A DNA stretch of 32,000 nucleotides from Candidatus Thorarchaeota archaeon (GCA_008080745.1 SHMX01000001.1:240001-272000); one strand, 5' to 3'. Positions 19,025-30,251 are shown, counted from the first letter of the stretch. Translations and numbers: made by a program. Notes: a model not told the origin generated them from the sequence alone.

Positions 19025-21313
19025 TCACTGACGAAGATAATAACGTTTATTCATCTCTTGACCTAAACGATTTAGAACCCGTCTGTCAACTAAAGCAATA
19101 TTGTCCATCATAATCAATGCACGAGTGATATTGGAAAATACAGCATTTAGGTAGGGTTGTGCCTGTGAGAATTCAGACTGCTCCACCATCTGAAGGTAGG
19201 CTTCTGCAATTTTAGTTAGTCCCAACCAATCTTCTGTAAGAATAAAATCGAACCTTGCAGGTACTTCTATTTTGGTAAGTTTATCTTCACCCCATTCAAT
19301 ATCAGAATTATAGTGGGTCTGCAAAGCTAGAGCAAAGCGAAGGAGAATATTTGCTAGAGAACCCGCAGTTGCAGTGATAAATTCAGAGGACTCGTCGTAA
19401 TCCGTTTCAACTCGGGAAACTACATCAAAAGCTTTTGCTGATTGATAGAGTCCATTGGATAATTTAGAATAATCATGATTATCATAAAACGCCTTGATAG
19501 TTTGGGCAAGATTAGTCTGTCCAATCCAATAATGTGCCAAGAGGTCATCTACTTGATGAAGTGCACTGTCAACTGGCTCATGGATTGTCACCCCCATTTG
19601 CAGGTTAATTGTTTCAAGGTTCATCTTTGCGATAGCCATGGCAGATAGAAGGTGACAGACATCAGCCAAGGCTTTATTCTCCTTGGCAAATCTTCGAGTC
19701 TCATCTCTCAAATCTTTCCAAGACGACTCGACATAGGGAATAAGTAGAGAGAGACCACGAATGAAAACAGTATCACCATCCACCTGATAATCAGATAACA
19801 TTCTATTCAGATCATCAAATAATCGCAGAAGTCGAGGGTTAAGTGGTTCATTGTGTCGAAGAGTTAGCCAGACAATATCATAAGTGGCAATAGCAACTTC
19901 GATAAAAGTACGAGTATCTGTCGGGAATAAGGGAACGTATTGAGTAAGGATCATCCTTAATTGTTCTTGATAATCGCCCTCGTTCATGCGCAGGTCCAAT
20001 AGTTTTCTACCTAGGAGAGTTCCAAGAAGTTCTATTTCTGCAATTGAACCAATTTTTCTTAGTTCTTCTCGTATCTGAATAGACCGATCAAAGGCCTCTT
20101 GCCCGATAGACCAGAACTCATCAGATTCCGTGGATAGACAAATCCAACCAAGAGCATTTTCAGTTCTTCCAAGTTCAATCCTGATATCACGGTCAAATTT
20201 TTCCAATTTGACTAATACTGATTTTGCCCGAGACATAAACTCAACACTACGAGTTAAATTTTCATGGTCACCAAGCATGCCATGAGAAAATCCCAGACAG
20301 ACCAGACATTTGTAATGGTTCAAGATTTGATTAGGGTTTGATTCGTCTAATGTTTCATAGAAATCTAAGGATTCAGATAACCATTCGATAGCTTGTGGAA
20401 CCCCTTCTCGCCATCCGTTTGCAAGGATATTAGACCCAATGATGACTCCTGCTAATGCAGTAAAATCTTCATCACACTCACCAGCTTCTACCGCCTCTTT
20501 ACAGGCCTTTGCAGATTTCTTTGCTAAGGCTCTCGCAGTATCATAAGGAACAGATTCATCCCGTGTTTCATTTACACTTAGTTGCAACAATACAGATGCA
20601 GTAAGAATGGGCTTTTTCAACTCTTCAGCCTGTTTTTCTAAATCTCTTAGTAGTTTTCGAGCTTCATCATACATTCCAAGCTCAGTAAGTACAAGAGATG
20701 CATTTAGACTAACTTCGATATTGAGATCATCAAGTCCTAGTTTCTTGGTTCGTCGCATGAGAGAGTTCAGTAAAGCATCTGCACAGTCGAATAAACCCAC
20801 TTCAATCAACTTCCAAGCGAGTTGATGAGCTTCGTGTAATGTCATTATTGAAGAGAATCTGTGGCCACGGCTCAGAATGGCATCAACAATTGTAATAACT
20901 TGATCCGTCAAGAAAGGTATCAGAGGACGAAGATTAAGCCTTAAGGCGCTCTCCATACCCATTCCATATTCCCCCATTATGTCGAGCAGCTGGGGAATGG
21001 CATCCATATCAGGAAGGATATCCAGCTCGCTCAGACGATAGCCACTGGTATAGCGGGTATCAAGAAGAAGAAGGAGTTCTGGTAGAACCCGATCTTCACT
21101 GAATGATAGACGAACAACAAGTTCAGTAAGCTTGGTATTAGCGACCTCGGGACGGCGTAAAATTATTTCTTCAATTGACCGTGCAATCTCAAAATAGAGC
21201 TCAGAATCAGTAGATGCACTAATGCCTAAAGTTTGTATAGTTGATAATCCATCATCAAGAGACATTGATGCATATAGTATGTCTCGAATGGTGGCATTGA
21301 GTGCTGACTCCAA
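19025..21313 (-). CDS. Large alpha-helical repeat (TPR/solenoid-like) hypothetical protein
   Basis: 762-aa Leu/Ala-rich ORF with TPR-like segments (LTELGMYDEARKLL; LGRTENALGWI...AFDRSIQIREEL). Confidence 0.7.
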   Translation of the reverse strand: MESALNATIRDILYASMSLDDGLSTIQTLGISASTDSELYFEIARSIEEIILRRPEVANTKLTELVVRLSFSEDRVLPELLLLLDTRYTSGYRLSELDILPDMDAIPQLLDIMGEYGMGMESALRLNLRPLIPFLTDQVITIVDAILSRGHRFSSIMTLHEAHQLAWKLIEVGLFDCADALLNSLMRRTKKLGLDDLNIEVSLNASLVLTELGMYDEARKLLRDLEKQAEELKKPILTASVLLQLSVNETRDESVPYDTARALAKKSAKACKEAVEAGECDEDFTALAGVIIGSNILANGWREGVPQAIEWLSESLDFYETLDESNPNQILNHYKCLVCLGFSHGMLGDHENLTRSVEFMSRAKSVLVKLEKFDRDIRIELGRTENALGWICLSTESDEFWSIGQEAFDRSIQIREELRKIGSIAEIELLGTLLGRKLLDLRMNEGDYQEQLRMILTQYVPLFPTDTRTFIEVAIATYDIVWLTLRHNEPLNPRLLRLFDDLNRMLSDYQVDGDTVFIRGLSLLIPYVESSWKDLRDETRRFAKENKALADVCHLLSAMAIAKMNLETINLQMGVTIHEPVDSALHQVDDLLAHYWIGQTNLAQTIKAFYDNHDYSKLSNGLYQSAKAFDVVSRVETDYDESSEFITATAGSLANILLRFALALQTHYNSDIEWGEDKLTKIEVPARFDFILTEDWLGLTKIAEAYLQMVEQSEFSQAQPYLNAVFSNITRALIMMDNIALVDRRVLNRLGQEMNKRYYLRQ

Positions 21314-21367
21314 TTTTCTTTCTCCTATCAGTTATCTTTGCTCTAATATTATCTGCCAATAAGTCTT

Positions 21368-22078
21368 TCATTTAGAACCAATGATGAAGGGGTGCCATTC
21401 TCGTGATGTATCTGTACCGCGCATTCGTTCCATCCGAACACAAAATTTGGAATCTTCACAGTCTGTGTTGAAGCGAAGCACCGCATCAGCAAGATAGGAA
21501 AAAGTTGCATAGGTCTTATCATCATGTACACCTTCTTCAAGGATGAACATAATGCTATGCGAATTTTGTGTTACCCTTCCACTCAACCTTTGCATAGATC
21601 GTGGCATTGTCAAGGGATTAGAATGAAGTATGAGTGTTGAGAGGCTATCTACAACAATTCTTGCACATACCAACCCCTCTAGGGCATCAAAAAGAATGAT
21701 TCCTAACTCACTAATATCATCAATCTTTGATAGAGAATATGATGCACCCGTCATAGGGGCACCCATCCGTTCAGAATAACCATCTATGAAGATAAATTGA
21801 CTACTAAGTTCGTATTCTTCAACAGACCATCCATGTCGACTCATATCATTCCTTATGACCCTAGGAGATACATCAGTTGTAACAAAAATTGCGGGAAACC
21901 CAAGTTTTAGTCCTTCAGCAAGAAACGCCTCTGCATAAGTTGTTTTCCCAGATCCAAGAGGCCCAAGCAGCATGTATGAAACTTGAGTAAGCTGTCCAAA
22001 CTTAACGAGATCGCTAATCATAGGGCTAGCTATCGGGTTACTGCTAGTGGACATTGATTGTGTTGCTTCTTTCTCCAC
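21368..22078 (-). CDS. KaiC-like / RAD55 RecA-superfamily ATPase (degenerate catalytic-Glu site)
   Basis: Walker A GPLGSGKT, Walker B VVDSLS, RMRGT arginine finger; FVTTD in place of the usual xVTxEE. Confidence 0.85.
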   Translation of the reverse strand: MEKEATQSMSTSSNPIASPMISDLVKFGQLTQVSYMLLGPLGSGKTTYAEAFLAEGLKLGFPAIFVTTDVSPRVIRNDMSRHGWSVEEYELSSQFIFIDGYSERMGAPMTGASYSLSKIDDISELGIILFDALEGLVCARIVVDSLSTLILHSNPLTMPRSMQRLSGRVTQNSHSIMFILEEGVHDDKTYATFSYLADAVLRFNTDCEDSKFCVRMERMRGTDTSREWHPFIIGSK

Positions 22079-22099
22079 ATTTGGAACCTCATTATGATA

Positions 22100-22849
22100 T
22101 TATACACCCGGACTTATTTCACCTGGCCATACTCTTATACCTTCGTCAGTGATTCTCATAGAATGAATCCGTGAACTATGTTTCGAACCCCGCAGTTTGA
22201 GAACCTCTACTGAACGTGATCGAGTAGTTTCACTAATTTTTTCGTTATAGAGTACTATCACACCGGAGGCCAGGAATGCCTCGATATCAAAAACCCCAAG
22301 ACCATCATTTTGAGCTGGAATCTCACTTGTAAGAAGGAGAGTACAACCAGAACGAGTAATATTTGCGGTCAACTTGAAAAATTCTTCACGGAGGATATCT
22401 CGGCTTTTGAATTTATACGCCATGATAGATAGGGTGTCAATGACAACACGTTTTGCTTTCATTCGCTTAACGTGATTCAGTATGATTGCTTCCAGACCGG
22501 ATAGATCAAAACTGGGATATTCGCCGATACTAACTGGTGTAGCTTCTTTTGATGGAGAAAGGTCCACTATAGCAAGCATTCCTTCTTCCTCCAATTTTCC
22601 AAAATCCATTCCAAAACGCATCATATTACGCTTAATCTTCTCAGGAGATTCTTCTAGAGTCACCAGAACTCCTGGTTCACTATACTCTATAGCGCCCCGA
22701 TAAAGGAACTGGTTAGCAAGAATGCTTTTCCCAGTGCCAGCCTTCCCAGCAATTAGTATAGTATCACCTAGGGGAAATCCTCCCTCAATCAATTCATCAA
22801 GACCAGGGATACCTGTTTTTACTCGCTCTATTGAATAGTCATCAGACAT
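22100..22849 (-). CDS. KaiC-like RecA-superfamily ATPase
   Basis: KTGIPGLDELIEGG, GKAGTGKS, VTLEE, VVIDT, LLLTSE, KLRGSKH. Confidence 0.93.
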   Translation of the reverse strand: MSDDYSIERVKTGIPGLDELIEGGFPLGDTILIAGKAGTGKSILANQFLYRGAIEYSEPGVLVTLEESPEKIKRNMMRFGMDFGKLEEEGMLAIVDLSPSKEATPVSIGEYPSFDLSGLEAIILNHVKRMKAKRVVIDTLSIMAYKFKSRDILREEFFKLTANITRSGCTLLLTSEIPAQNDGLGVFDIEAFLASGVIVLYNEKISETTRSRSVEVLKLRGSKHSSRIHSMRITDEGIRVWPGEISPGV

Positions 22850-23166
22850 TATTTTGCACCTCGTCGCTGTCTAGCTTTTGCTCCCAGTATCATTTTGAAA
22901 ATCATCCCAGGCTCGGGAATACCTGTGACCGATACGCCGCCGATCATAATGGTCGGAAGAGCAAAGACCCCATATTCCTCTCCTTTTTCAGGATTCTTAC
23001 TTACATTTATTGTTTCTAGACGAAATGTATTCTCTTCGAAATCACCTATCGTTTCAAGCAGAACTTCTTCTGCTCGAGGACAAAATGCACATGTATCGGA
23101 CTTGAAGAAGACAATCTCGATTCTGGTGTCTTCATCATTTGCTTCTATGCTATCGTTGTTCGACAC
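22849..23166 (-). CDS. Thioredoxin-fold protein (CAFC), KaiB-resembling
   Basis: VFFKSDTCAFCP..., INVSKNP..GEEYGVFALPTI. GTG at 23166 follows an AGGAG RBS. The stop codon overlaps the kaiC-like ATG. Confidence 0.82.
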   Translation of the reverse strand: MSNNDSIEANDEDTRIEIVFFKSDTCAFCPRAEEVLLETIGDFEENTFRLETINVSKNPEKGEEYGVFALPTIMIGGVSVTGIPEPGMIFKMILGAKARQRRGAK

Positions 23167-23256
23167 AATATGCACTCCTAGAATAGGATAACTTCGAACA
23201 TCACTCGTGATAGAAATCACTTGAATCTTTTGACGGGGTTGAATATCAACTGTTAC

Positions 23257-23640
23257 TTACCGATATCCCAGTATTCTACGTATTCTGGTTCCTGCCTTCC
23301 CAATAGGTCGTGCATGATATCTCACATTTCGGGGCATTATAGCAGCCAAGATAAGAGGTTGATATCCTTTTGCGGACACTTTTTTGAATACTGCTTTCCC
23401 CATAGAACAGCGCACCGCAATGTCTTTTAAATCGCCTAGATTCAACTCATTTCTCATTCGCTCTACAGAATCAGCTACATAACCAGACATTGCTGCTACA
23501 ACTTCACGATTCGTTGTGGGAGATGCAGCTGATGCCAGCAGAAGCCCATCATCCCGAGCCAATATCGAGGCAATAAAGCCTCCCTCTTTATTCATTTTCT
23601 CTAATACTTCTGCCAAGGCACGGTAGTCTGGTCTTTCCAT
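23257..23640 (-). CDS. Roadblock/LC7 (MglB-like) domain protein
   Basis: ASILARDDGLLLAS...AAM...ERMRNELNLGDLKDIAV..SMGK roadblock pattern. ATG at 23640 preferred. Confidence 0.88.
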   Translation of the reverse strand: MERPDYRALAEVLEKMNKEGGFIASILARDDGLLLASAASPTTNREVVAAMSGYVADSVERMRNELNLGDLKDIAVRCSMGKAVFKKVSAKGYQPLILAAIMPRNVRYHARPIGKAGTRIRRILGYR

Positions 23641-23809
23641 GTTATTACCCCTAGACTTCTGGTCACATTCTCGATTGCGCAATTCCTTATTAAATCATAG
23701 CGTTCCTAATTTGTATAGACAAGAGATAAAAAAGAGAACATGAAAGCATATTTACAGTATTGTTTTAAGTATCAATATCTATCATGGGACAATACGAGGG
23801 AACAGGAAC

Positions 23810-24361
23810 ATGTCAGCCGAATATCGCTTTAAGATTGTGATGCTGGGAGATGGTGCTGTCGGTAAAACAGCACTAACCACACGGTTCACACAAGATCATT
23901 TCGAAACTGACTATAAGCGAACTATAGGCAGTGATTTTGCTGTTAAACGATTAGAGGTGGAGGAAAGGAACGCCAATGTCACCTTGCAGGTTTGGGATCT
24001 TGCGGGACAGAAGAGATTCGAGATTGTTCGGCAGTCCTTCTATCGTGGTGCAAGAGGTGGACTATTGGTCTATGACGTCACCAGAAGACGTACTTTCATG
24101 AATCTTGAAACATGGAAAAAAGAGGCATACGAGAATGTTGGTAAAGAAATTCCTTTGGTCATCGTAGCTAACAAGGTAGACCTTGAAGATAGTAGAGTGG
24201 TTACGACGGAGGAAGGTAAAACATATGCGGAAGGCCAAGGTTTTCTCTATGCAGAGTCAAGTGCGCTAACAGGCAAGAATGTCGAAGAGGCATACAAAAA
24301 ACTATGTATGGCGATGATTGATACCTCAAAGGAACAAAAAGACTCGAAAACAATGATATAG
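23810..24361 (+). CDS. Rab-like small GTPase
   Basis: G1 GDGAVGKT, G2 TIG, G3 WDLAGQ, G4 NKVD, G5 SA; RabF-like IGSDF, FYRGA, LVYDVT. Confidence 0.95.
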   Translation: MSAEYRFKIVMLGDGAVGKTALTTRFTQDHFETDYKRTIGSDFAVKRLEVEERNANVTLQVWDLAGQKRFEIVRQSFYRGARGGLLVYDVTRRRTFMNLETWKKEAYENVGKEIPLVIVANKVDLEDSRVVTTEEGKTYAEGQGFLYAESSALTGKNVEEAYKKLCMAMIDTSKEQKDSKTMI

Positions 24362-24367
24362 ATTCAT

Positions 24368-25495
24368 CTATACTTTCCGAGGTCTTCCCTTCAGTAAACC
24401 AAGAGCATTCTTACATTGCCACATGATATAGAATACCCGTTTGTCACGAAGAGTTCGCTCATCATATCTATCTCGCAATTCGTGAAACTTCTGAACATGT
24501 GCCTCACGTTTTGCTCCTTCGGAATCAGATTCTATCTCCTCAAGAAGGTCTTGGAAAGGTCTGAGAAACGCTTCTAGTTCTTTTACTTCCCACCGAATAA
24601 GTGCACCAGCACCATCTGAGCTGATAAACTGTTTGCTATCAGGATACCATATTAGTTCATCAACCTCACCTATGAGAGATGCTTCGCCTTCTACAGTACC
24701 ACTTTCAAGGCTCCAAACATAGACATCTTTATCATTTGAGCCCGATGCAAGGTATTTTAGGTCAGAGCTGAAAGATACCGCTCGAACCTCATCTGTATGC
24801 CCCAATAGAGTCTTTTCTTCTTCTAGCTTGTCCTTTGTTGCATCCCAGACAATGATGCTCAAATCCGAAGAACCCGATGCTGCCTTTGAGCCATCTCGGG
24901 AGAATCTGATTGTCTTTACTGCAGTACGATGATATTGAATCATCTCGATTGGTTTCTCGGAATTTGGATTCCAGATTCCAATCTTTGCATCAACTCCACC
25001 AGAGATGATACGATTACCAGTAGGATCCCAATCACATGTCACAACATAGAGGTCGTGACCTTTGAGGGTTCTAATCCGGGCTTGTTCATCTACATCCCAA
25101 ATACCAAGAGTAGTATCTCCACTACCGGAAACGAGACGATCTCCATCTGGAGAGAAGGAGAGGGCTAGAATAGGATAGGAATGTCCCTCTAACGTGGCAA
25201 TACAATCACCCGTCCGGATATCCCAGAATTTTATGACCCGTTCAACACTTCCTGATGCCACAATATCTCCACGAGGGGAAAATGCAAGTGAAGTACACAG
25301 TGCATCGTCTTGGAATCGTTGAATTTCCTCTCCCTCCTGAGAATCCAATAGACGAATGGTCTTGTCCTGCAGACCTATAGCAATGAGCCGTCCAACTTGA
25401 TTCATTGTGCATCTTCGAGTAATTTCTGACCCGTGTTCAGCACGTGTTTTCAAAGAGGTGGGTTGGAGAAATAGAGAGAGTTCCTTTGATTCCAT
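24368..25495 (-). CDS. WD40-repeat beta-propeller protein with helical C-terminal extension
   Basis: About seven repeats (GH...SFSPDG..LVSGSGDTTLGIWD; GH..EV.AVSFS...ASGS.DK.V.VW). Confidence 0.95.
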   Translation of the reverse strand: MESKELSLFLQPTSLKTRAEHGSEITRRCTMNQVGRLIAIGLQDKTIRLLDSQEGEEIQRFQDDALCTSLAFSPRGDIVASGSVERVIKFWDIRTGDCIATLEGHSYPILALSFSPDGDRLVSGSGDTTLGIWDVDEQARIRTLKGHDLYVVTCDWDPTGNRIISGGVDAKIGIWNPNSEKPIEMIQYHRTAVKTIRFSRDGSKAASGSSDLSIIVWDATKDKLEEEKTLLGHTDEVRAVSFSSDLKYLASGSNDKDVYVWSLESGTVEGEASLIGEVDELIWYPDSKQFISSDGAGALIRWEVKELEAFLRPFQDLLEEIESDSEGAKREAHVQKFHELRDRYDERTLRDKRVFYIMWQCKNALGLLKGRPRKV

Positions 25496-25614
25496 TTAGT
25501 TCACCATCTGGATTGAGTGGCTCTACAACAGCCCATCAAAGATTTGATGCTAAAAAGATTGTGAATAGAGAAATAGCATAGTAAATTAGCACAAACATTA
25601 TTTGAACTGACTAA

Positions 25615-26877
25615 ATGGAAACAGCTAGGGGAGCAAATATTGTGTCTCGTGAACCCGAACGGCTACCATCCGTAACAGATGTTACTCGTACTGTCAAAAA
25701 ACTAGGAAAGAGCTTAGCAAAGATATTCAAAGGCTCATCCGAAAAGTTAGAGAATGATTTGAGGCTACTACAATCAATACAAGCATGTAAAGACGCTTCA
25801 TTGACAGGAAATGAGGATAAACGACTTCTTGCTGTATGTCGTTTATGCGAGTTTGGAGAGAATGCACAAGAATCACTCGAGTTGACCCTATTAGATGATA
25901 GTGAAGTCATTCGGGCAGCTTCAGTAGGAATGCTCATGTTTCTACACAATACAGAGTGTCTAGAAATCATCAAGAAACACAAAGGAGATTCCAGTCCCAA
26001 AGTAAAGGCAGTCGCCAATTATGCCTTCGAGTGGCTTAAGACACAATTAGATGCCGTTCCAGAACCAATGCCAAGCAAAGTAAAGGTTTTGGGAACAAGT
26101 GACCCAAACAAATCAGATGCTGTGGAAGTCCCACTAAAATCTAGTGACGATGTTCCAGTTAAAACCGACTACACTGATATGAATGGTGCAATTGAATTTT
26201 CCGTCATCGTAATAAATGGCATGTCTGAAGAAATTCGCGATATCGAGGTGCAAATTTTAGCATACCCAGGAGATAGTCTGAATCTTACTTCTCGCTCTAA
26301 GGAGATTATTGAACGAATCGGCCCTGGAGGTAGTGAAGAAGTTGTCTTTAAACTTGAAAAGACATCAGAAGCTATCGAGGGGGAATTCATTAGCTCCGTA
26401 ACATTTGTTGACCAAAGTGGCGAAAGAATTGCAGCGAAGACCGGTAACCGTTTGATAAGATCATTTTATGCACAGATAGAACCCCTAGAGAGCAGCTCAG
26501 AAGACTATCACGATCTAAAAAGTAAGATGAAGCATTGGAGCAGGGAACATGTGGTCCCAGAAGACCCTGAAACCCTCTTCGACCAAGTCAAGGCGCTAAT
26601 GAAAAACAAGAATCTATTCATTTTGAATTCAGAGATTTCAAAAAGAGACTCTATGTACATGGGCGTCATAACTGGTATGGGCAAGGGGAAATATGTTGAT
26701 GCTAGAATTGCTGTAACATTAACAGTTCTTGGAAGGTCCAATGAAAATCTATCGAAAATGAGGATTGATGTTATATCTGAAGAGAGTACATTTGTAAATA
26801 CTGCTGCTAGTGAGATATATACTTCAATCCAAGATGTAGTTGGTGGAGATATCCTGCTAGAAACGGATAAACTCTAA
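25615..26877 (+). CDS. HEAT-repeat + linker + adaptin/coatomer appendage-like (Ig sandwich plus platform) protein
   Basis: aa ~65-142 HEAT repeats (LLDDSEVIRAAS, GDSSPKVKAVA); Pro-containing linker; aa ~180-282 beta-sandwich; aa ~284-415 platform-like region starting FYAQIEPLESSSEDYHDLKSKMKHW. Confidence 0.6.
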   Translation: METARGANIVSREPERLPSVTDVTRTVKKLGKSLAKIFKGSSEKLENDLRLLQSIQACKDASLTGNEDKRLLAVCRLCEFGENAQESLELTLLDDSEVIRAASVGMLMFLHNTECLEIIKKHKGDSSPKVKAVANYAFEWLKTQLDAVPEPMPSKVKVLGTSDPNKSDAVEVPLKSSDDVPVKTDYTDMNGAIEFSVIVINGMSEEIRDIEVQILAYPGDSLNLTSRSKEIIERIGPGGSEEVVFKLEKTSEAIEGEFISSVTFVDQSGERIAAKTGNRLIRSFYAQIEPLESSSEDYHDLKSKMKHWSREHVVPEDPETLFDQVKALMKNKNLFILNSEISKRDSMYMGVITGMGKGKYVDARIAVTLTVLGRSNENLSKMRIDVISEESTFVNTAASEIYTSIQDVVGGDILLETDKL

Positions 26878-27440
26878 ACCATTCCACCAGCTTCTAAAAT
26901 TTTGATTGCTAGTTCTAAGAAAGCAGCCTCAACATTTGTACCAGTTTTAGCTGAGGTCTCAAGAAATGAGGCATGAACACCTGAAGCAGTAATTTTATCA
27001 GCAAATGCCTGACCTTCCTCAGTAGTTACAATAGTCTGCCTCATCGCTTCGTTATCTTTGAATTGTTCACGAAGGTCTATTTTATTTCCGATAACAACCA
27101 CAGGTACCTTTCTACCAGTATTGCCCCAACACTCCTCCAACCAGTTCTCAAGGTTCTCAAATGAGGATCTCTCAACCGTGGAATAAACTGCTAGAGCGCC
27201 CTGAGCACCCATATAGAAACTTGATCGCACATTCTTGAAATGTTCCTGTCCAGCAAGGTCCCATATTTGTATACTTACATCATGCCCACCAGCTAGTTTG
27301 AGCTTTTTCACAGCAAAGTCAGCTCCAATTGTGATGTGATATGATGCTCTAAATCCTTCTCCCATGTATGTTCGTCTTAGGCTAGTTTTTCCAACTGAGC
27401 CATCGCCCATAAGAACCACTTTGAATAATGCTGTGACCAT
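26874..27440 (-). CDS. Rab-like small GTPase
   Basis: GDGSVGKT, TIGADF, WDLAGQ, FYMGA, NKID, ETSAK. Confidence 0.95.
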   Translation of the reverse strand: MVTALFKVVLMGDGSVGKTSLRRTYMGEGFRASYHITIGADFAVKKLKLAGGHDVSIQIWDLAGQEHFKNVRSSFYMGAQGALAVYSTVERSSFENLENWLEECWGNTGRKVPVVVIGNKIDLREQFKDNEAMRQTIVTTEEGQAFADKITASGVHASFLETSAKTGTNVEAAFLELAIKILEAGGMV

Positions 27441-27705: not shown

Positions 27706-27981
27706 ATGGGAAGGACGGTAAGAACATTTCGAGATGCGGTTGATTACGAAGAGAAAAAGTGGATGGGATTTAGACGTACTCTAGGGAAGAAACACCGTAA
27801 CAATGTTGACACAATCTTTGATAGTGCTAGAAAAATGGCTGATGCTGGCACCATGATTGTAACACCACGAACAATGGAAGTGATACTATTCTCAGCAATA
27901 TTGGAGATTCTTGAACGATTTGAGATAATCGAGGAGAAAATTGAGAGTCTGGAAGGTCGTATCAAGGAGCGGACTGAATGA
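27706..27981 (+). CDS. Small PolB2-associated protein (arCOG07300-like)
   Basis: MGRT..R......W..FRR.L...D..F..AR...A......E.ILFS.ILE pattern; ATGA overlap with the polB gene. Confidence 0.75.
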   Translation: MGRTVRTFRDAVDYEEKKWMGFRRTLGKKHRNNVDTIFDSARKMADAGTMIVTPRTMEVILFSAILEILERFEIIEEKIESLEGRIKERTE

Positions 27982-30251
27982 AAGATAAAGGATGGCTACT
28001 TGATGCTACTATTGACTATGAGAATCGGGAACTGATACTCTGGATAAAAAAAGATGGAAGAACCAAAGGATATTCGTATAACAAATTCTACCCCTCCATC
28101 TTTATTCATAAAGAGTTGGACCGCGATACAGGATGGACATGGAATCGCTTTATCCAATCGGTGAAAGAACATCCAAAGATAGTTAATGTGGAAAGAGAAA
28201 AGAAGTATGTGAGCATATATGACAGGGAGAAAAGTCCAGTAATCAGAATATATACCACTGTAGATTCGCAAAGAGAAGTGGCCCGAGACCTTGAGGACAG
28301 ATTACATACCCCAGTATATCATGCGGATATCAGCCCGATTCAACAATTCTTTATCGAGAACGAAATGTTCCCATTTGGTAGAATAGAATTTGAACGGATT
28401 GGAAACAAGATTACATCCATCACATCGCTAGACGACAGAGAAGCGATAGAATATGAATTGCCAGATTTGGAAGAAATAGGAATTGAGGTCCTAATTCAGA
28501 CAGAGGCGTTTTTTCCCCAAGATAGTGATCCGATACATAATATTGTATTATTCCATAAAGGGAGGAAAATTCGTATCAGAGAAGAAAACGAGGAGAAAAC
28601 TCTTTGTAAACTGCAAGAATACATTGATAGTATAGATCCGGATGTCATTGTAACTCAAGGTGGTGACAATCAACTATTTCGATACTTGTTTCTCAGAGCA
28701 AAAAAATATGATATCGAGTTATCCTTTTCTAGAGATCGAACACGATTGACAGTGCAAGAGGGGAGTCCCGGTTCATATTGGCAGTATAATCAGATAGTAT
28801 TTCGCTCTGGAAACCAAGTGACATTTAGAGGGCGGATTCATATTGATAATAGTGGTAGTCCCTATTATTCACCCTCAGGAATAGAGGGAGTTATTGAGGG
28901 TTGCCGTCTCGCATTCGCACCACCACAGAGAGTTTCAAGAATGACGATTGGTGCGGTTAACGCTGCGGTACAATTCTATAATGCATACAAAATGGACATT
29001 CTAATTCCACCTATTAAAAAAAACCCAGAATATCTCAAATCAGCAAGCGAGATTGCCAATATTGACAGGGGTGGCCTCATATTCCAACCACGTCCAGATA
29101 TTTACGAAAATGTGGTGGAATGTGATTTTGCATCGATGTATCCAACACTCATGGTCACCCGCAATATCAGTCCTGAAACCATTTGTATACGTACTGATTG
29201 TCCCTATGACTATCGCCATTGTATCGACGTTCCAGAATTGCAATTCAGGATATGTGGGCGTAAACGAGGCTTGGTTGCAGAATCACTGGAACTTATTATT
29301 AGGAAAAGGGATGGATTCAAGAAACTCATTTCGGATGGTCAAATGGCTTCTAAATACAAGAAGATGCAAAATACTCTGAAAGGGATTCTCGTATCATGTT
29401 TCGGATATTTGGGATTCAGAAATGCCAGATTTGGAAGAGTTGAGGCACATACTGCAGTCACCGCCTTCGCACGAGAGGTGTTACTGAAAACCCGCGAGAT
29501 TGCAGAAGAGATGAATCTAGAAATAGTACATGGTATCGTGGACTCGATATGGATACGAGGGAAGGATATCAGTCACGACCATATCCAAGAATTCTGTAAT
29601 CGGGTTTCAGAGAGAGTTGATATCAAGATGTCAATGAAGGGTGTTTATCAATGGCTTGTCATCCCATCATCCCGCACACATCCGGCAATCGCCCCCCTGA
29701 ATCGATATTATGGTGTCTTCATCAATGGGAGCATAAAGACCAGAGGAATCGAAACCCGTCGTCGCGATACCTGCCTCTATGTAGGAGACTGTCAAAAAGA
29801 GATGATTAGGACACTAGCTCGAGGAAAATCCAAGCAAGAATTCATACGGAGAATTATCAAAGCGTACCAAGTCTGTCAACAGTACATTGAACGACTACAA
29901 GCTGGGGATGTGGACATTCGAGACCTAGTACTTCATTCTAGACTGACACGAGACCCAGATCAGTATCGAGCTACATCTCGTTCTGCATTGGTTGCAAAAC
30001 AGCTTGTGAAGATTGGCCGCGATATACATGCAGGACAAAAGGTACGATATCTTATGACTGAGGCGGATTCAGAGACCCCAATAAGAAGAGTATGTGCACT
30101 AGAATTAGTCAAGGAGAGCACCCGCTACGATGTTGAGGCATATTCAAGACTCTGTATTAGAGCATTTGAAAATCTTATCCCAGCACAGTATCTTGACAAG
30201 AAGTGCTATGACCAAGACTATGAAGAGATGCTTCTGACAGATTTTTGCTAG
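27978..30251 (+). CDS. polB2: Family B DNA polymerase, PolB2 group
   Basis: Motif A DFASMYP; motif B Q..LK.IL..CFGYLG; motif C HGIVDS in place of YGDTDS; KTRGIE..RRD; degenerate exonuclease motifs. Confidence 0.88.
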   Translation: MKDKGWLLDATIDYENRELILWIKKDGRTKGYSYNKFYPSIFIHKELDRDTGWTWNRFIQSVKEHPKIVNVEREKKYVSIYDREKSPVIRIYTTVDSQREVARDLEDRLHTPVYHADISPIQQFFIENEMFPFGRIEFERIGNKITSITSLDDREAIEYELPDLEEIGIEVLIQTEAFFPQDSDPIHNIVLFHKGRKIRIREENEEKTLCKLQEYIDSIDPDVIVTQGGDNQLFRYLFLRAKKYDIELSFSRDRTRLTVQEGSPGSYWQYNQIVFRSGNQVTFRGRIHIDNSGSPYYSPSGIEGVIEGCRLAFAPPQRVSRMTIGAVNAAVQFYNAYKMDILIPPIKKNPEYLKSASEIANIDRGGLIFQPRPDIYENVVECDFASMYPTLMVTRNISPETICIRTDCPYDYRHCIDVPELQFRICGRKRGLVAESLELIIRKRDGFKKLISDGQMASKYKKMQNTLKGILVSCFGYLGFRNARFGRVEAHTAVTAFAREVLLKTREIAEEMNLEIVHGIVDSIWIRGKDISHDHIQEFCNRVSERVDIKMSMKGVYQWLVIPSSRTHPAIAPLNRYYGVFINGSIKTRGIETRRRDTCLYVGDCQKEMIRTLARGKSKQEFIRRIIKAYQVCQQYIERLQAGDVDIRDLVLHSRLTRDPDQYRATSRSALVAKQLVKIGRDIHAGQKVRYLMTEADSETPIRRVCALELVKESTRYDVEAYSRLCIRAFENLIPAQYLDKKCYDQDYEEMLLTDFC

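Follow-up and report, generated by a model that had tools for sequence, protein, structure and literature searches.

Five genes in 4.2 kb

We analyzed a 32,000-nt stretch of the genome of Candidatus Thorarchaeota archaeon (GCA_008080745.1 SHMX01000001.1:240001-272000), hereafter the window, in which the locus at 23257-27440 encodes a Roadblock/LC7 protein, two Rab-like small GTPases (Rab1 and Rab2), a WD40 beta-propeller, and a protein of 420 amino acids (aa) with HEAT repeats, a hinge and a predicted appendage or "ear" (HEAT-ear). A sequence-only reading had described five open reading frames (ORFs) on alternating strands and proposed that their products may form one minimal GTPase-regulated coat or adaptor complex. 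The ORF list reproduces that layout in full, including the convergence of Rab1 and WD40 across a 6-bp gap (24362-24367) and of HEAT-ear and Rab2 with a 4-bp overlap (26874-26877).

23257-23682, minus strand: Roadblock/LC7 protein (ORF of 141 aa)
23810-24361, plus strand: Rab1, Rab-like small GTPase (ORF of 183 aa)
24368-25495, minus strand: WD40 beta-propeller (ORF of 375 aa)
25615-26877, plus strand: HEAT-hinge-ear protein, or "mini-adaptin" (ORF of 420 aa)
26874-27440, minus strand: Rab2, second Rab-like GTPase (ORF of 188 aa)

All five domain identities in that reading were also right: Pfam bears out four of them (Roadblock, two Ras and WD40), and the HEAT-ear call, made by eye, is backed by HEAT_2 matches in orthologs and by the fold predicted with AlphaFold2 (AF2). 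Its observation is confirmed and its interpretation partly supported. The genome holds approximately 30 small GTPases, 14 Roadblock genes, 2 WD40 proteins and 5 ear proteins, and by a rough calculation that takes no account of tandem duplication, five consecutive slots filled from those classes should occur about 4e-6 times per genome; on that estimate, these four rare gene classes cluster far beyond chance.

Rab1, its arginine and the adjacent Roadblock

Rab1 matches Pfam Ras with an E-value of 7e-53 and aligns to Thor-Rab (PDB 7ezb_A) across residues 1-176 with an E-value of 8.7e-87. The Thor-Rab gene (protein KXH73347.1), on contig LRSL01000056.1 (locus L009), stands at the Rab1 position of the same syntenic block, and there too a Roadblock gene lies upstream, at about 135 bp. 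Rab1 is the ortholog of this crystallized protein of Candidatus Thorarchaeota SMTZ1-45 (PDB 7EZB/7EZD/7EZE), with which it has in common the position in the block, Arg37 and the lack of a C-terminal cysteine. Arg37 lies in switch I directly before the switch-I threonine and is kept in 32 of 33 Rab1 orthologs. The sole ortholog with histidine at this position (L057:4845-5384) belongs to genus g15, in which HEAT-ear and Rab2 are also at their most divergent (31% and 71% identity). In the alignments of both Rab1 and Rab2, the motifs GxxxxGKT, switch-I Thr, DxxGQ, NKxD and SA[KL] are invariant, leaving G1-G5 intact, and the solved structures nearest to the two GTPases are eukaryotic Rab11, Rab14 and Rab1 (E-values of 1e-41 to 1e-32). 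No prenylation cysteine was found in the last 6 residues of either GTPase of the locus, and neither has an amphipathic N-terminal helix.

Thor-Rab binds GDP and GTP-gamma-S, has slow intrinsic GTP hydrolysis, and likewise ends without a cysteine; its Arg37 was equated with Arg53 of MglA, and no paralog in that genome shares it (Tran et al. 2024, PMC10933270). The same study called the matching of GTPases to regulators from genome layout difficult, and the neighbors of the Thor-Rab gene are not discussed in it (PMC10933270). With its Rab-type switch I (KRTIGSDF, not the RTLFFDF type of the MglA family), Rab1 is not an MglA family member but may work like one. Across the genome, an arginine precedes the switch-I threonine in 4 of 30 small GTPases. 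Three of these four (Rab1 and two MglA-like proteins on contig 2) have a Roadblock gene at most 1.6 kb away, as compared with none within 3 kb for the 26 GTPases that lack the arginine. It is well established that MglA is activated by MglB, a dimer of Roadblock proteins that brings the arginine and glutamine of the GTPase itself into position, as reportedly described by Miertzschke and colleagues in 2011. Since Arg-type GTPases adjoin Roadblock genes and MglB offers a precedent, an MglB-like role of the neighboring Roadblock on Rab1 is supported by inference; the independent support for a Roadblock as GTPase regulator extends to Rab1 only.

The Roadblock protein itself scores 26 bits with PF03259 (Robl_LC7; gathering cut-off 23), and its sequence matches in the PDB are weak, falling on Roadblock proteins and LAMTOR2. 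Orthologs from 48 loci are 56-80% identical, and their alignments begin only at residue 14-16. The listed ORF opens with TTG, the extra N-terminal stretch corresponding to 23640-23682; because of where the orthologs start to align, the true start is probably the ATG at 23640, giving 127 aa. Roadblock and Rab1 are divergently transcribed from opposite strands, with 127-169 bp between them.

Rab2 and the WD40 propeller

Rab2 (Pfam Ras, E-value 8e-47) has isoleucine instead of arginine before the switch-I threonine and a longer G4-G5 loop; its orthologs are 71-84% identical, among the most conserved proteins of the block. The WD40 protein matches Pfam WD40 with an E-value of 4e-49 and 5 repeats over threshold, many propeller families match it, and only a C-terminal tail of about 70 aa follows the propeller. 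WD40 orthologs are 53-62% identical. A genome-wide search with PF00400 returned two ORFs only, the WD40 gene of the locus and a 301-aa protein (G000:C9:66875-67492). No WD40 ortholog was found at an E-value of 1e-30 or better in genomes G368 and G370, both of which keep HEAT-ear, and none was found with these queries outside the family, in its sister family (G311) and four other Asgard families.

The HEAT-hinge-ear protein

At 90% clustering, the 420-aa protein has 52 relatives, all from Thorarchaeota or unclassified Promethearchaeota and most of them annotated merely as HEAT-repeat proteins. Pfam gave no match for the window's own protein; HEAT_2 is matched by 45 of 47 orthologs. An AF2 model built on the 47-row alignment, with a predicted local distance difference test score (pLDDT) of 83, suggests the following architecture.

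Residues 20-37 (25672-25725), plus strand: basic N-terminal helix (AF2 model)
Residues 40-146 (25732-26052), plus strand: HEAT repeats, paired helices (AF2 model)
Residues 148-168, plus strand: disordered hinge (pLDDT below 50, between two confident domains)
Residues 175-290 (26137-26484), plus strand: beta-sandwich (AF2 model)
Residues 295-409 (26497-26841), plus strand: beta-alpha-beta4-alpha platform (AF2 model)
Residues 413-418 (26851-26877), plus strand: disordered C-terminal tail with ILLETD (sequence)

Foldseek searches against the PDB returned COPI and AP2 appendages as best matches (E-values of 7e-11 to 1e-8), followed by BBSome subunits, and alignments to Swiss-Prot models of gamma-COP, beta-COP and AP2 alpha extend from the HEAT part through the ear. 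The beta-COP platform family PF14806 (Coatomer_b_Cpla) matches 15 of the 47 orthologs weakly, with a best E-value of 0.0024 that is below curated significance, and language-model features place the protein at 0.84-0.89 to adaptin/COPI ear clusters, under the 0.9 mark and a lead only. Because a search of PDB sequences with the ear profile found no adaptin and returned only chance-level matches, homology of the ear rests on the fold together with these weak Pfam and language-model signals. As modeled, the C-terminal half is an adaptin-type appendage by fold, with beta-sandwich and platform.

The lysine/arginine-rich helix before the HEAT array is conserved, and is the only stretch of the five proteins that is a candidate for binding membranes or partners. 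The hinge differs among orthologs in both length and sequence, and in 26 of 47 it contains, near residue 156, the motif [IFM]L[LIV]x[TS][DE] (for example ILLDTD). In the window's protein the motif is not in the hinge but appears as ILLETD in the C-terminal tail, where the nearest relative has ILLDME at the same spot. It behaves as mobile short linear motifs do, and is clathrin-box-like but does not match the clathrin box. With respect to WD40 presence, it was found in g11-type orthologs and, in the C-terminal tail, in g1, and was missing from g12 with or without WD40. Alignment-based complex prediction for Rab1, Rab2, two GTP and HEAT-ear gave an ipSAE interface score of 0.00 in both runs, which were made without controls, and speaks neither for nor against an assembly.

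Beyond these orthologs, an exhaustive profile search identified 387 representative clusters that carry the ear domain, with N-terminal partners as diverse as a beta-helix, an SBBP propeller, LRR and a zinc ribbon. A HEAT array occurs within this family only in the orthologs of about 400 aa, a single orthologous group. The ear is thus a promiscuous archaeal module, and the HEAT-hinge-ear order is a narrow variant that is new.

Conservation of the locus in Thorarchaeaceae

For synteny we used forty loci from species-level genomes, and the loci of other genera were fetched with a 762-aa protein as anchor; the anchor is present in all 16 genera of Thorarchaeaceae, and the locus was read in 15. The block runs, in order, through two upstream genes, an elongation factor 2 (EF-2) paralog, the 762-aa protein, KaiC-B, KaiC-A, a thioredoxin-like protein, Roadblock, Rab1, WD40, HEAT-ear, Rab2, a 91-aa ORF, a family-B DNA polymerase (PolB) and a nickel-insertion protein, and is collinear over at least 16 kb in this family (16 genera) only. 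The sequence-only reading had looked to synteny as a check, and the neighborhood is indeed kept in relatives, if within one family and as part of a long block that includes unrelated genes.

The order Roadblock-Rab1-WD40-(HEAT-ear)-Rab2 recurs across the 15 genera read, with proteins 31-84% identical, and the back-to-back Roadblock/Rab1 pair is found in 13 of them. Median identity to the window's proteins is 81% for Rab2, 71% for Rab1, 66% for Roadblock, 57% for WD40 and 37% for HEAT-ear, the fastest-evolving gene of the block; the figure for KaiC-A is 83%. Among 400 searched genomes of the phylum, full-length HEAT-ear orthologs turned up in only 7 of the 16 genera of this one family, and ear-only paralogs are widespread. 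The other nine genera have Roadblock-Rab1-WD40-Rab2-ORF91-PolB without a HEAT-ear gene; in these, WD40 lies directly downstream of a co-oriented Rab2, with a gap of about 90 to 460 nt, and a Rab2-WD40 operon is possible. Wherever a HEAT-ear gene was found it adjoins Rab1 or WD40, and it also adjoins Rab2 except in genus g12, where the distance to Rab2 ranges from 15 kb to about 850 kb. An unrooted tree of three locus proteins requires at least four changes of HEAT-ear presence, at least two of them forced by well-supported branches; because HEAT-ear is at one and the same site wherever it occurs, the simplest history is a single gain with several later losses. On this comparison, no two of the five genes are obligate partners.

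A proposed Rab signaling island

The stable core of the locus consists of Rab1 with its MglA-type arginine, the back-to-back Roadblock at the head of an operon, the tail-to-tail WD40 and the very conserved Rab2, while the HEAT-hinge-appendage gene between Rab2 and WD40 is optional and belongs to part of the family only. At a probability of roughly 45%, we favor a vertically inherited, Thorarchaeaceae-specific small-GTPase signaling island in which Roadblock is an MglB-like regulator and WD40 and HEAT-ear are candidate effectors; we do not regard the locus as a demonstrated coat. The Roadblock dimer would regulate Rab1 as MglB does MglA, by positioning the GTPase's own arginine and glutamine for hydrolysis, or might instead act on Rab1 as an exchange factor (GEF) for guanine nucleotides. 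GTP-bound Rab1, Rab2 or both would recruit the WD40 propeller and, where present, HEAT-ear, whose ear would collect partners through short motifs in the manner of adaptin ears. Every physical interaction in this scheme, and any link to a membrane, is one that we infer.

Neighboring genes and related loci

A co-oriented operon on the minus strand (window 19025-23682) starts with Roadblock, which is followed by genes for a thioredoxin-like protein, two KaiC-like proteins and the 762-aa solenoid of TPR type, with spacings that range from a 1-nt overlap (thioredoxin-like/KaiC-A) to 54 bp.

22849-23220, minus strand: thioredoxin-like protein with CxxC (Pfam)
22100-22849, minus strand: KaiC-like A (Pfam)
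21368-22078, minus strand: KaiC-like B (Pfam)
19025-21313, minus strand: 762-aa TPR-like alpha-solenoid (AF2 model, no Pfam match)

The AF2 model of the 762-aa protein (pLDDT 88.9) has 33 helices in an all-helical, TPR-type arrangement, for which Foldseek returned generic TPR scaffolds only (Ctr9, Ski3, LGN, TTC28); no specific coat or tether family was among the fold-search matches. Outside the family, its query found no counterpart in the sister family (G311) and four other Asgard families.

Divergent from Rab2, on the other side of the locus, lie two further genes that stay with Rab2 in most genomes.

27706-30251, plus strand: conserved 91-aa ORF and family-B DNA polymerase (Pfam DNA_pol_B and synteny)

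The 91-aa ORF (27706-27981, plus strand) has no Pfam match and is conserved across the family (45-60% identity). It runs 4 bp into the start of PolB, and is therefore probably genuine, a small gene that shares a transcript with PolB. The junction between Rab2 and this ORF has taken up recurrent insertions of 1.5 to 6 kb (L008, L012, L014, L030, L054) and is a local rearrangement hot spot.

Elsewhere in the genome, the two MglA-like GTPases of contig 2 and the four further ear proteins are found at the following positions.

G000:C2:194416-196459 and G000:C2:419609-422056: MglA-like GTPase and Roadblock loci (switch I RTLFFD and RTMFCD)
G000:C4:175037-177388: ear protein, 783 aa (two matching stretches)
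G000:C3:363979-366267: ear protein, 762 aa
G000:C1:540589-548694: ear protein, 2701 aa
G000:C6:477-3440: ear protein, 987 aa

On contig 2, one locus has three Roadblock partners of a single domain each, the other has one Roadblock gene with a double domain, and both loci look like classical MglA/MglB-type modules.

Alternative explanations

Several observations weigh against a functional island. Conservation of the gene order, though genuine, does not single out the five genes, because the block also holds PolB, the nickel-insertion protein, the EF-2 paralog and regulators, and with these queries it was found neither in the sister family (G311) nor in four other Asgard families. Strands alternate over all five ORFs, each gene is its own transcription unit, and no pair is co-transcribed. 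A look for expression data returned no RNA, only two DNA runs from marine sediment that may have been the source of the assembly. Nor does an ear alone imply GTPase-linked trafficking, because it joins very different N-terminal modules elsewhere; no small GTPase lies within 9 kb of the other four ear genes, and a general ear-GTPase link was rejected on this ground. The locus might reflect descent only, in a slowly rearranging region of Thorarchaeaceae where the five genes are coupled no more than any neighbors. This explanation fits a collinear block of mixed and unrelated functions, which reaches from two or more genes upstream of the EF-2 paralog as far as the nickel-insertion gene. It also fits the separate transcription units and the fact that every one of the five genes is missing at the locus, or sits elsewhere, in one lineage or another. 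We nevertheless regard it as rather unlikely: shared descent leaves unaccounted for the run of five consecutive genes from four rare signaling classes, the three distinct loci of the genome where Arg-type GTPases and Roadblock genes pair up, and the constancy with which HEAT-ear is found beside Rab1 or WD40 and, outside g12, beside Rab2. Roadblock, being clearly the first gene of a five-gene operon, also bears against an MglB-like role on Rab1, and it is conceivable that two unrelated modules simply abut, the Roadblock-thioredoxin-KaiC-KaiC-TPR operon and Rab1/WD40/Rab2 with or without HEAT-ear, with Roadblock serving the KaiC ATPases or the solenoid instead of Rab1. The tight, co-oriented spacing of that operon agrees with such a division. 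The divergent pair is moreover not inviolable: Roadblock is parted from Rab1 in three genera, by insertions of 1.2 to 1.5 kb in g10 and g14 and by a break in g16; the break seen in G392 falls exactly between the two, Roadblock remaining with the KaiC operon. This arrangement seems to us improbable, however, given that the arginine of Rab1 otherwise marks Roadblock-neighboring GTPases in the genome and that most genera read keep the back-to-back pair.

The proto-coat of the sequence-only reading, in which all five products assemble on membranes into a single minimal coat or adaptor complex under GTPase control, is right in that the fold types of AP and COPI (small GTPases, propeller, HEAT repeats, hinge and ear) are all present within 4.2 kb. 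An alpha-solenoid of 762 aa lies 2 kb away, and an acidic-hydrophobic short motif in the hinge or C-terminal tail is conserved in many orthologs. Against a single complex, the parts are optional and separable: nine of the 16 genera dispense with HEAT-ear yet keep the other genes, and no WD40 ortholog was found in genomes where HEAT-ear persists. No operon joins the genes, propeller and solenoid are separate polypeptides, and the trunk is short, about 110 aa as compared with about 600 aa in adaptins, with no Adaptin_N match. A membrane anchor is likewise missing: no segment in any of the five proteins is hydrophobic enough for a transmembrane stretch, and the GTPases show no amphipathic N-terminal helix or prenylation cysteine. 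On this balance we consider a proto-coat very unlikely. Slightly more doubtful still is the idea that the HEAT-hinge-ear protein shares ancestry with the C-terminal half of adaptin/COPI large subunits and would serve as a Rab-recruited adaptor, its HEAT repeats binding a neighboring GTP-Rab, its motif docking into the neighboring WD40 propeller in the way that a clathrin box engages the clathrin terminal domain, and its ear gathering cargo or accessory factors; if this were true, HEAT-ear, Rab and WD40 would be a minimal GTPase-adaptor-propeller system predating eukaryotic coats.

Significance and comparison with known systems

How vesicle coats and adaptors originated is an open question in eukaryogenesis, and published surveys report Asgard adaptin domains solely as isolated pieces or in fusions with ESCRT modules. 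The locus supplies a natural protein with HEAT array, hinge and ear in that order, encoded between two Rab-like GTPases and beside a propeller. With Thor-Rab already purified and crystallized, the hypothesis that the Roadblock is its missing GTPase-activating protein (GAP), working through Arg37, is readily testable, as is a second, that the propeller and the mini-adaptin are nucleotide-dependent effectors. A caution also follows: because the parts are separable and lineage-specific, adjacency of such genes in Asgard genomes should not be taken as a coat.

Among known systems, MglA/MglB of Myxococcus and Thermus resembles the signaling island in having an adjacent Roadblock gene and an arginine right before the switch-I threonine of the GTPase. 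It differs in that Rab1 is Rab-like (TIGSDF switch I), the genes here are divergent and not in one operon, and the GAP role is a predicted one. The Roadblock beside Rab1 is also different from the Thor-RB crystallized by Tran et al. The Asgard operon of a LAMTOR1-like Roadblock, a Rab-like GTPase and DENN (Liu et al. 2021) likewise places a Roadblock-superfamily gene beside a Rab-like GTPase in a conserved Asgard neighborhood, whereas here there is no DENN, Roadblock heads the thioredoxin-KaiC-KaiC-TPR operon, and conservation is limited to one family instead of being Asgard-wide.

With the large subunits of AP and COPI (alpha-, beta- and gamma-adaptin; beta- and gamma-COP), the 420-aa protein has in common an appendage of beta-sandwich and platform and a flexible hinge between trunk and appendage. 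Those subunits are about 900 aa long, as against 420 aa here, and because its trunk (residues 40-146) is so short beside the Adaptin_N trunk of about 500-600 aa that holds mu and sigma, the protein is not an adaptin large subunit; Adaptin_N (PF01602) has no match in it or anywhere in the genome. A search for mu/sigma (longin-type) subunits with PF01217 also gave no match in the genome, but gave none in control genomes either and is thus uninformative. Unlike the Arf-like GTPases of AP and COPI, those beside HEAT-ear are Rab-like, and where the protocoatomer has propeller and alpha-solenoid in one chain, WD40 and the 762-aa solenoid are separate genes in separate transcription units. In Asgard genomes, AP domains were described as "not fused to each other", and an appendage was found nowhere downstream of Adaptin_N (Eme et al. 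2023, PMC10307638); ears were described in fusions with ESCRT-I or with modules of other kinds (Liu et al. 2021, 10.1101/2020.10.19.343400; Makarova et al. 2024, 10.1101/2024.02.06.579148). The appendage-like domains of archaea and Asgard archaea have the same two-lobed ear as the protein of this locus; those described occur with Vps28/Vps23 (ESCRT-I), UFM1-ligase, zinc ribbons or GOLD, or alone, whereas here a HEAT array and a hinge precede the ear.

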